This document shows positions 1 through 2,355 of a stretch of 2,355 nucleotides of DNA, one piece after another (position 1 is the stretch's first letter; each line of letters starts with the position of its first letter). A program made the translations under genes and the position numbers. This DNA comes from Escherichia coli (GTDB taxonomy: Bacteria > Pseudomonadota > Gammaproteobacteria > Enterobacterales > Enterobacteriaceae), in NCBI RefSeq assembly GCF_003334785.1, contig NZ_QOWV01000057.1. One strand, given 5' to 3'. The notes under the pieces were generated by a model. The model searched no databases. It had not been told where the DNA came from and saw only the letters and a program-made list of their open reading frames with translations.

Positions 1-19
1 CGTTATATCCGAAGCCCCC

Positions 20-412
20 GTGGTAAAAAAACGTCCCCGGCGGCCCAACTTCCCTTATGAGTTTAAAATCGCCTTAGTGGAGCAGTCACTGCAGCCCGGA
101 GCCTGTGTGGCGCAGATCGCCCGGGAAAACGGAATCAACGATAACCTGCTCTTCAACTGGCGCCATCAATACCGGAAAGGTGGCCTGCTGCCTTCCGGAA
201 AAAATATGCCGGCACTGCTTCCCGTGACGTTAACGCCGGAGCCGGATAATAAAATCCCGGCCCCCGCACAGGAACCAGAGCAGATAAATACACCGTCCGA
301 CAGTCTGTGTTGTGAGCTGGTTCTGCCGGCCGGAACTCTCAGGCTTAAAGGTAAACTGACGCCGGCGTTATTACAGACACTTATCCGCGAAATAAAAGGG
401 AGCAGCCACTGA
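20..412 (+). CDS. tnpA: IS66-family accessory protein TnpA (orf1), predicted helix-turn-helix DNA-binding protein
   Basis: 130-aa ORF from GTG at 20 to TGA at 410-412. The N-terminus (EFKIALVEQSLQPGACVAQIARENGINDNLLFNWRHQYRKG) fits the HTH pattern of IS66 orf1 and related transposase N-terminal domains. A Pro/Glu-rich linker follows, then a C-terminal segment (ELVLPAGTLRLKGKLTPALLQTLIREI) resembling the conserved orf1 C-terminus. The reading frame is open all the way to position 2, so the true start could lie upstream of the window, and no clear Shine-Dalgarno precedes the GTG. Confidence 0.85.
   Translation: MVKKRPRRPNFPYEFKIALVEQSLQPGACVAQIARENGINDNLLFNWRHQYRKGGLLPSGKNMPALLPVTLTPEPDNKIPAPAQEPEQINTPSDSLCCELVLPAGTLRLKGKLTPALLQTLIREIKGSSH
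396..401 (+). promoter_or_regulatory. Shine-Dalgarno-like AGGGAG for tnpB, embedded in the 3' end of tnpA
   Basis: AGGGAG at 396-401, 10 nt upstream of the tnpB ATG at 412-414. Confidence 0.5.
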
Positions 413-759
413 TGATATCTCTCCCTGCAGGTTCGCGTATCTGGCTGGTTGCAGGTATCACCGATATGCGAAATGGCTTTAACGGCCTGGCATCAAAAGT
501 TCAGAACGTCCTGAAGGATGACCCGTTCTCCGGACACCTGTTCATCTTCCGCGGACGCCGGGGTGACCAGATAAAAGTGTTGTGGGCTGACAGTGACGGA
601 CTGTGCCTCTTCACCAAACGCCTGGAGCGGGGCCGCTTCGTCTGGCCAGTCACCCGTGACGGCAAGGTGCACCTTACTCCGGCTCAGTTATCCATGCTTC
701 TTGAAGGTATCAACTGGAAGCACCCGAAACGAACGGAACGCGCTGGAATCCGCATATAA
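412..759 (+). CDS. tnpB: IS66-family accessory protein TnpB (orf2); unrelated to the IS200/IS605 TnpB nuclease
   Basis: 115-aa ORF, ATG 412-414 to TAA 757-759. The sequence (RIWLVAGITDMRNGFNGLASKVQNVL...PFSGHLFIFRGRRGDQIKVLWADSDGLCLFTKRLERGRFVWP) is characteristic of IS66 orf2 as I recall it from enterobacterial IS66 elements. The start overlaps the tnpA stop (ATGA), as is typical for the family. Confidence 0.92.
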   Translation: MISLPAGSRIWLVAGITDMRNGFNGLASKVQNVLKDDPFSGHLFIFRGRRGDQIKVLWADSDGLCLFTKRLERGRFVWPVTRDGKVHLTPAQLSMLLEGINWKHPKRTERAGIRI

Positions 760-771
760 CCCGTTGTAAAG

Positions 772-777
772 TGAGGA
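772..777 (+). promoter_or_regulatory. Shine-Dalgarno-like GAGGA for tnpC
   Basis: tGAGGAt at 772-778, immediately before the ATG at 779-781. The spacing is short (1-2 nt after the core), so this is only a moderate-confidence RBS. Confidence 0.45.
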
Positions 778-778
778 T

Positions 779-2350
779 ATGGACACCTCACTTGCTCATG
801 AGAACGCCCGCCTGCGGGCACTGTTGCAGACGCAACAGGACACCATCCGCCAGATGGCTGAATACAACCGCCTGCTCTCACAGCGGGTGGCGGCTTATGC
901 TTCCGAAATCAACCGGCTGAAGGCGCTGGTTGCGAAACTGCAACGTATGCAGTTCGGTAAAAGCTCAGAAAAACTTCGTGCAAAAACCGAACGGCAGATA
1001 CAGGAAGCACAGGAGCGAATCAGCGCACTTCAGGAAGAAATGGCGGAAACGCTGGGTGAGCAATATGACCCGGTACTGCCATCCGCCCTGCGCCAGTCTT
1101 CAGCCCGTAAACCGTTACCGGCCTCACTTCCCCGTGAAACCCGGGTTATCCGGCCGGAAGAGGAATGCTGTCCTGCCTGTGGTGGTGAACTCAGTTCTCT
1201 GGGATGTGATGTGTCAGAGCAACTGGAGCTTATCAGCAGCGCCTTTAAGGTTATCGAAACACAACGTCCGAAACAGGCCTGTTGCCGGTGCGACCATATC
1301 GTGCAGGCACCAGTACCTTCAAAACCCATTGCACGCAGTTATGCCGGAGCGGGGCTTCTGGCCCATGTTGTCACCGGGAAATATGCAGACCATCTGCCGT
1401 TATACCGCCAGTCAGAAATATACCGTCGTCAGGGAGTGGAGCTGAGCCGTGCCACACTGGGGCGCTGGACAGGTGCTGTTGCTGAACTGCTGGAGCCGCT
1501 GTATGACGTCCTGCGCCAGTATGTGCTGATGCCCGGTAAAGTCCATGCTGATGATATCCCCGTCCCGGTCCAGGAGCCGGGCAGCGGTAAAACCCGGACA
1601 GCCCGGCTGTGGGTCTACGTCCGTGATGACCGTAACGCCGGTTCACAGATGCCCCCGGCGGTCTGGTTCGCGTACAGTCCGGACCGGAAAGGTATCCATC
1701 CACAAAATCACCTGGCCGGTTACAGCGGTGTGCTTCAGGCCGATGCTTACGGTGGTTACCGGGCGTTATACGAATCCGGCAGAATAACGGAAGCCGCGTG
1801 TATGGCTCATGCCCGGAGAAAAATCCACGATGTGCATGCAAGAGCGCCCACCTACATCACCACGGAAGCCCTGCAGCGTATCGGTGAACTGTATGCCATC
1901 GAGGCAGAGGTCCGGGGCTGTTCAGCAGAACAGCGTCTGGCGGCAAGAAAAGCCAGAGCCGCGCCACTGATGCAGTCACTGTATGACTGGATACAGCAAC
2001 AGATGAAAACACTGTCGCGTCACTCAGATACGGCAAAAGCGTTCGCATACCTGCTGAAACAGTGGGATGCACTGAACGTGTACTGCAGTAATGGCTGGGT
2101 GGAAATCGACAACAACATCGCAGAGAACGCCTTACGGGGAGTGGCCGTAGGCCGGAAAAACTGGATGTTCGCGGGTTCCGACAGCGGTGGTGAACATGCG
2201 GCGGTGTTGTACTCGCTGATCGGCACATGCCGTCTGAACAATGTGGAGCCAGAAAAGTGGCTGCGTTACGTCATTGAACATATCCAGGACTGGCCGGCAA
2301 ACCGGGTACGCGATCTGTTGCCCTGGAAAGTTGATCTGAGCTCTCAGTAA
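779..2350 (+). CDS. tnpC: IS66-family DDE transposase TnpC (orf3)
   Basis: 523-aa ORF, ATG 779 to TAA 2348-2350. It has an N-terminal heptad-rich coiled-coil region with the IS66-typical FGKSSEKL motif (nt 953-976). A CxxC...CxxC zinc-finger-like pair follows (CPAC at 1169-1180, CRC at 1283-1291). Candidate catalytic residues are HADD (D at 1550-1555), QADAYGGY (D at 1742-1744) and NNIAEN (E at 2123-2125). Length and domain order match IS66 transposases. Confidence 0.95.
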
Positions 2351-2355
2351 ATATC

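Follow-up and report, generated by a model that had tools for sequence, protein, structure and literature searches.

The 2,355-nt stretch of Escherichia coli DNA considered here (contig NZ_QOWV01000057.1; hereafter the window, meaning this whole stretch) very probably comes from ISCro1, an insertion sequence (IS) of the IS66 family, and represents bases 320 to 2674 of a copy 2,699 bp long, which is either the E. coli isoform of this IS or cannot be told apart from ISCro1. Over these bases the window and the element are 100% identical. The Prokaryotic Genome Annotation Pipeline (PGAP) labels the element "IS66-like element ISCro1 family," and the window is an ordinary internal piece of a catalogued IS that is already known. 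The assignment to the IS66 family is solid: all three encoded proteins score above the curated NCBIfam cut-offs and, in addition, show the corresponding Pfam domains, which bears out the placement of the window in this known class of mobile elements by the first-pass annotation (an earlier reading of the letters alone). Three open reading frames (ORFs) with zero internal stops lie on the same strand, at positions 20 to 412, 412 to 759, and 779 to 2350. They had been described as three intact genes, a description that holds for tnpB (412 to 759) and tnpC (779 to 2350), the only genes that are complete in the window, but not for tnpA, which is cut by the window edge.

Comparison with full copies supplies what the window lacks. 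The complete element consists of an imperfect left inverted repeat of 22 bp, tnpA (225 amino acids [aa]), tnpB (115 aa), tnpC (523 aa), and a right inverted repeat, and it measures 2,699 bp in six enterobacterial copies and in one from Citrobacter rodentium (seven measured). Three E. coli copies that were fetched with their flanks, two of them chromosomal and one on an espP virulence plasmid, are identical across the 2,699 bp, and each of three further copies, from Salmonella, Klebsiella, and Shigella plasmids, is a single base off the E. coli copy. Relative to these, the first 319 bp of the element (comprising the left inverted repeat, a 31-nt leader, and 265 nt of tnpA) and its last 25 bp are missing from the window. 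Because both inverted repeats and 95 tnpA codons thus lie outside, transposition competence is not something that can be judged from the window alone. The sequence is also highly repeated: matches to the window occur in 2,906 of 5,426 complete E. coli genomes, with 13,545 matching places (an identical repeat), of which 10,318 are chromosomal and 3,227 are on plasmids, and with a maximum of 34 in one genome. Since the window lies wholly inside a repeat that has thousands of identical copies and more than 13,000 matching places, neither the interrupted target and insertion site nor the replicon that carries it is recoverable from the window.

The limits of the element were placed by aligning the flanks of three copies, which cease to be alike at one and the same base on either side. 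In full copies the left terminus, GTAACCGGCTCATTTAAACCGT (starting GTAACCGGCTC; in shorter form, GTAACCGG), starts 319 bp upstream of the first window base, and the right terminus, ACGGTTCTGACGAGTCGCTTAC (ending in ...GAGTCGCTTAC, ...GACGAGTCGCTTAC, or, most briefly, ...CGCTTAC), ends 25 bp past the last one (2355). On the complementary strand the right end reads GTAAGCGACTCGTCAGAACCGT and begins GTAAGCG. The two ends form 22-bp terminal inverted repeats (GTAACCGGCTCATTTAAACCGT and GTAAGCGACTCGTCAGAACCGT) that match at 16 of 22 positions and sit at the exact termini. The right repeat starts 8 nt past the tnpC stop, at the equivalent of window positions 2359 to 2380, so that the right end falls 30 bp beyond this stop; flank comparison of full copies identifies the last bases of the window (2351 to 2355, + strand) as the first five of these 8 nt. 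In an inverted-repeat search alone, many internal pairs score equal to the terminal pair, and what makes the terminal pair convincing is not its score but only its agreement with the limits of conservation and with the target duplications.

Such duplications, reported as 8 bp for IS66 (PMC6778807), are present as perfect 8-bp repeats, each of different sequence, around five of the six copies examined, namely, the three E. coli copies (TTTTGAGG, ACAGGGAG, and GGTTGAAT) and two of the three Salmonella, Klebsiella, and Shigella plasmid copies (GATTTCGT and CGTTGATC). Several expectations of the first-pass annotation are thereby settled. Both ends and the insertion context do lie outside the window, as the flank alignments demonstrate; the end motif GTAAGCG, which it had named, is that of the right end on the complementary strand; and the two checks it proposed, for terminal inverted repeats and for an 8-bp target duplication, have both returned what was sought in full copies. 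Its picture of noncoding margins of tens of base pairs on both sides did not survive, with the right end 30 bp past the tnpC stop and the left end 319 bp before the window. An extension by 150 bp on each side, as it recommended, reaches the right end but misses the left one, the distances required being ~330 bp to the left and ~35 bp to the right.

Support for the name of the element comes from a comparison with C. rodentium ICC168, in which ISCro1 received its name. The PGAP-labeled copy on the pCROD1 plasmid of this strain lies at 50082 to 52697, and ISCro1 was found neither in bases 1 to 50000 of pCROD1 nor in pCROD2. Its length (2,699 bp) and three-gene layout are those of the E. coli element, its TnpA is again 225 aa long, and its ends are nearly identical, the left one reading GTAACCGGCTC in the E. 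coli copy versus GTAAGCGTCTC in C. rodentium. The two copies share 98.1% DNA identity over 2,699/2,700 aligned bases and are separated by 49 substitutions and 2 small indels. ORF sizes are equal, with 221 of 225 residues identical in TnpA, 114 of 115 in TnpB, and 514 of 523 in TnpC. By the ISfinder convention, isoforms share >95% DNA identity.

Two further kinds of IS66-family element serve for comparison. One, carried by E. coli plasmids, is a relative of 2,704 bp (L005, 1083 to 3786), which resembles ISCro1 in gene order, in the TGATG junction of tnpA and tnpB, in its similar GTAA... ends, in a conserved terminal repeat, and in a long TnpA (216 aa); between approximately element base 600 and the right end, the two are 92 to 98% identical. 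The relative differs in that the identity is only ~47% at element bases 101 to 400 and ~75% at 401 to 600, so that its left end and the first third of its TnpA are unlike those of ISCro1. This stepwise change of identity inside tnpA, from ~47% to ~95%, which takes in window bases 1 to 280 (element bases 320 to 600), suggests a mosaic origin, in which a left-end module, comprising the inverted repeat and the TnpA N terminus, would have been swapped between IS66-family elements by recombination. The relative may be IS679 of pB171, a possibility suggested by the 2,704-bp length of that element; if it is IS679, the element in the window is not. The other kind comprises ISEc8 and canonical IS66, members with a short TnpA, which have in common with ISCro1 a DDE_Tnp_IS66 transposase, a TnpB_IS66 protein, the order tnpA-tnpB-tnpC, and an 8-bp duplication. 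Canonical TnpA proteins of this kind are ~113 to 133 aa long and are without the 95-residue N-terminal extension of ISCro1, and the DNA of these members is only ~71% identical to that of the element, within no more than a part of tnpC.

The most consequential departure from the first-pass annotation concerns tnpA, which in the window is truncated at its 5' end and is not a complete gene. The window begins within this gene: positions 2 to 412 (+ strand) hold its 3' part, codons 90 to 225 of a 225-aa accessory protein, with the frame open from base 2 (VISEAPVVKK) and with the IS3-type DNA-binding domain HTH_Tnp_1 of Pfam at residues 102 to 159 of the long form. The annotation of six full copies gives tnpA as a gene of 678 nt (225 aa) whose start lies 265 bases upstream of the window, and a 225-aa ORF is likewise present in the C. 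rodentium copy. Profile comparisons agree with this extent. The 225-aa version matches the curated long-TnpA model NF038385 over positions 1 to 189 at 295.8 bits, as against positions 80 to 189 of 190 only, at 186.9 bits, for a 130-aa version, and the N-terminal 95 aa on their own match the same model (E = 1.5e-27). A Pfam scan gave in this N-terminal extension only a very weak and nonsignificant HTH_23 signal (E = 0.55). The 2,704-bp relative keeps a 216-aa TnpA frame open even though its DNA is 45% identical over the first 95 codons, and by the Nei-Gojobori method the N-terminal region has, between the two elements, a pN of 0.49 that is below the pS of 0.72, a direction that fits coding sequence.

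The first-pass annotation had instead begun tnpA at the GTG at base 20, with only 19 nt before it. On that account the window would hold a complete 130-aa tnpA, all three genes would be intact, and nothing but a leader of ~19 nt and the inverted repeat would be missing on the left. There are reasons why it could appeal: 130 aa is the usual size of TnpA in other IS66 elements (it is 133 aa in the ISEc8-like element of locus L004), GTG is a legal start codon that is replaced by ATG in some copies, and the short-TnpA model NF047595 (113 positions) is matched above its cut-off by the 130-aa version. We nevertheless consider it extremely improbable, given that the frame is open upstream past the start of the window, that six full copies and the C. 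rodentium copy all have a 225-aa ORF, that the upstream 95 aa match NF038385 by themselves, that the left inverted repeat is 319 bp and not ~50 bp before window base 1, and that no Shine-Dalgarno-like sequence precedes the GTG at base 20 (CCGAAGCCCCC, followed directly by GTG).

In the long TnpA this GTG (positions 20 to 22, + strand) is internal codon 96, encoding Val, and it is ATG in some copies. A change of G to A at element base 339 (locus position 639; Val96Met) is the only difference of the Salmonella and Shigella plasmid copies (L007 and L009) from the E. coli copy. A variant of the previous proposal would have tnpA encode, beside the long form of 225 aa, a short form of 130 aa from an internal start at codon 96 (GTG or ATG). 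In its favor, the sole difference in these two copies falls on the first base of that codon with both alleles being start codons, and in the long form the match to NF047595 starts at residue 102, which puts the beginning of the canonical short IS66 TnpA about six residues past codon 96. Codon 96 is, however, without a preceding Shine-Dalgarno sequence, a change of Val to Met is also an ordinary conservative substitution, and the A allele comes from two copies; dual products are accordingly very unlikely in our estimation. If the short form did exist, a protein of canonical IS66-like extent beside the long two-domain form could modulate transposition as a built-in regulator. For annotation, the long, 5'-truncated tnpA has a plain lesson, namely, that TnpA is ~225 aa in this IS66 subgroup and that the apparently complete 130-aa tnpA of the window is a truncated gene.

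A number of points weigh against the identification of the window as part of an otherwise complete ISCro1 copy with a long tnpA. Neither end of the element is in the window, and its source copy may be incomplete. The name ISCro1 rests on the PGAP labels and on the comparison with C. rodentium, and the length of ISCro1 has been quoted as 2,824 bp (PMC8764528), which is 125 bp above the 2,699 bp measured in seven copies. The one copy of the six without a target duplication is that on the Salmonella IncC plasmid (L007, 292 to 300 versus 3000 to 3007; GAACAATC versus TAAACAAG). The start of tnpA could be either the ATG at element base 54 (giving 225 aa) or that at element base 84 (giving 215 aa); both are without a clear Shine-Dalgarno sequence, and the match to the NCBIfam model does not start until residue 13. 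Finally, pS is saturated in the comparison of the TnpA N termini, so that the pN/pS test is weak when taken alone and counts as supporting evidence only. Unmatched 8-bp flanks were also seen around the pCROD1 copy (L012; CAGACAAT versus TTTTCACT) and around the 2,704-bp relative (L005; GTTCAGGA versus CAAAAAAC); in all three cases they would be consistent with deletions next to the element or with subsequent recombination between copies.

The possible incompleteness of the source copy can be put more strongly, in that the window might derive from a truncated or decayed ISCro1 copy rather than being an arbitrary cut through an intact one. Truncated copies do exist (element bases 282 to 2699 in match H42 and 799 to 2699 in H49), as do copies interrupted by IS600, IS3, or IS4, and in about half of the genomes with any match, no single place reaches 80% coverage of the query. 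Such an origin is unlikely all the same: the window consists throughout of IS sequence that is the same in intact copies, there is no junction with foreign DNA at either edge, and independent truncations would be needed at both edges, of which the right one is only 25 bp from the true end of the element.

The remainder of the window conforms to the organization of the family. IS66 elements have tnpB in the -1 frame relative to tnpA, with its ATG overlapping the tnpA TGA, and tnpC ~20 bp downstream, and the window agrees with this layout, with tnpA, tnpB, and tnpC in frames 2, 1, and 2. The junction of the first two genes, read directly from the sequence, is a TGATG (410 to 414, + strand), in which the TGA of tnpA overlaps the ATG of tnpB by one base. 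The complete tnpB (412 to 759, + strand) encodes a 115-aa IS66 accessory protein that matches NF033819 at 128.9 bits (cut-off, 50) and positions 2 to 100 of 101 of Pfam TnpB_IS66; in identical DNA its product is annotated as WP_000624622.1, not as a pseudogene. A 19-nt spacer (760 to 778, + strand), likewise read directly, with a Shine-Dalgarno-like GAGG at 773 to 776, leads to tnpC (779 to 2350, + strand), which is complete and encodes a DDE transposase of 523 aa annotated as WP_000381395.1, "IS66-like element ISCro1 family transposase." TnpC matches NF033517 at 477.9 bits (cut-off, 180) and four Pfam domains, which follow one another as a leucine-zipper region (LZ_Tnp_IS66, aa 46 to 121), a zf-IS66 domain (aa 128 to 172, with CCPACGG and CCRCDH), the DDE catalytic core (aa 186 to 472), and DDE_Tnp_IS66_C (aa 479 to 516); the core covers positions 1 to 283 of 284 of DDE_Tnp_IS66 (E = 5e-103). 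By the motifs of the family, HADD (256 to 259), LQADAYGGY (319 to 327), and NIAENALR (446 to 453) would contain candidate catalytic residues, and the sequence at 341 to 348 is a putative CxAHxRR-like motif.

On the pattern of the family, the three genes would be read from one transcript with translational coupling, and the overlapping TGATG and the -1 frame of tnpB are the arrangement expected for such coupling. TnpC, as the DDE transposase, would bind and cleave the GTAA... ends, which would then be joined to a target cut with an 8-bp stagger, and TnpA is predicted to act as a DNA-binding accessory protein. By analogy with IS679, all three proteins may be required for transposition; for that element Han et al. 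reportedly demonstrated in 2001, by experiment, transposition, the 8-bp duplication, and the need for all three ORFs. Identical or one-base-different copies of ISCro1 are found at different sites in Escherichia, Shigella, Salmonella, and Klebsiella. The occurrence of near-identical copies at many sites, mostly with duplications of their own, on chromosomes and conjugative plasmids of four genera suggests that this type of element has moved recently.

Other searches of the same sequences added little. Searches of PDB sequences with TnpA, TnpB, and TnpC recovered zero relatives, an Rfam scan of the whole element at relaxed thresholds gave zero matches, and the window contains no tandem repeats and no tRNAs. 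A promoter scan returned zero promoter-like sites, and the 3 terminator-like sites compare with 3.0 expected by chance. Inside tnpC there are two ORFs in alternative frames, at 930 to 1445 (+ strand; 171 aa) and 1371 to 1841 (- strand; 156 aa), which we take as by-products of coding sequence with 56% G+C.

Beyond correct annotation the significance of the window is small. ISCro1 is abundant in pathogenic E. coli and Shigella and on their plasmids. It has been recorded as an IS66-family element in E. coli ST131 (PMC8764528), and in C. rodentium it has expanded more than any other IS, to 24 copies (PMC3072379). The surroundings of individual copies vary. On the espP virulence plasmid pE2865-2 (L002), the element splits an IS3-family transposase gene (1700 to 2679 and 5372 to 5620) with the duplication ACAGGGAG, and an IS600 remnant adjoins it. 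On one chromosome (that of L003), a second IS66-family element, the ISEc8-like one (L004, 1687 to 3877), lies on the left of the ISCro1 copy at a distance of ~2.1 kb; it has a 133-aa TnpA and a frameshifted tnpC, and genes of a zinc-ribbon protein and of the inovirus Gp2 family stand between the two. The region looks like an island rich in mobile DNA. Several ISCro1 copies are themselves interrupted by IS600, IS3, or IS4 (matches H1 to H5, H26, and H43), and the element therefore serves in its turn as a target for other insertion sequences.

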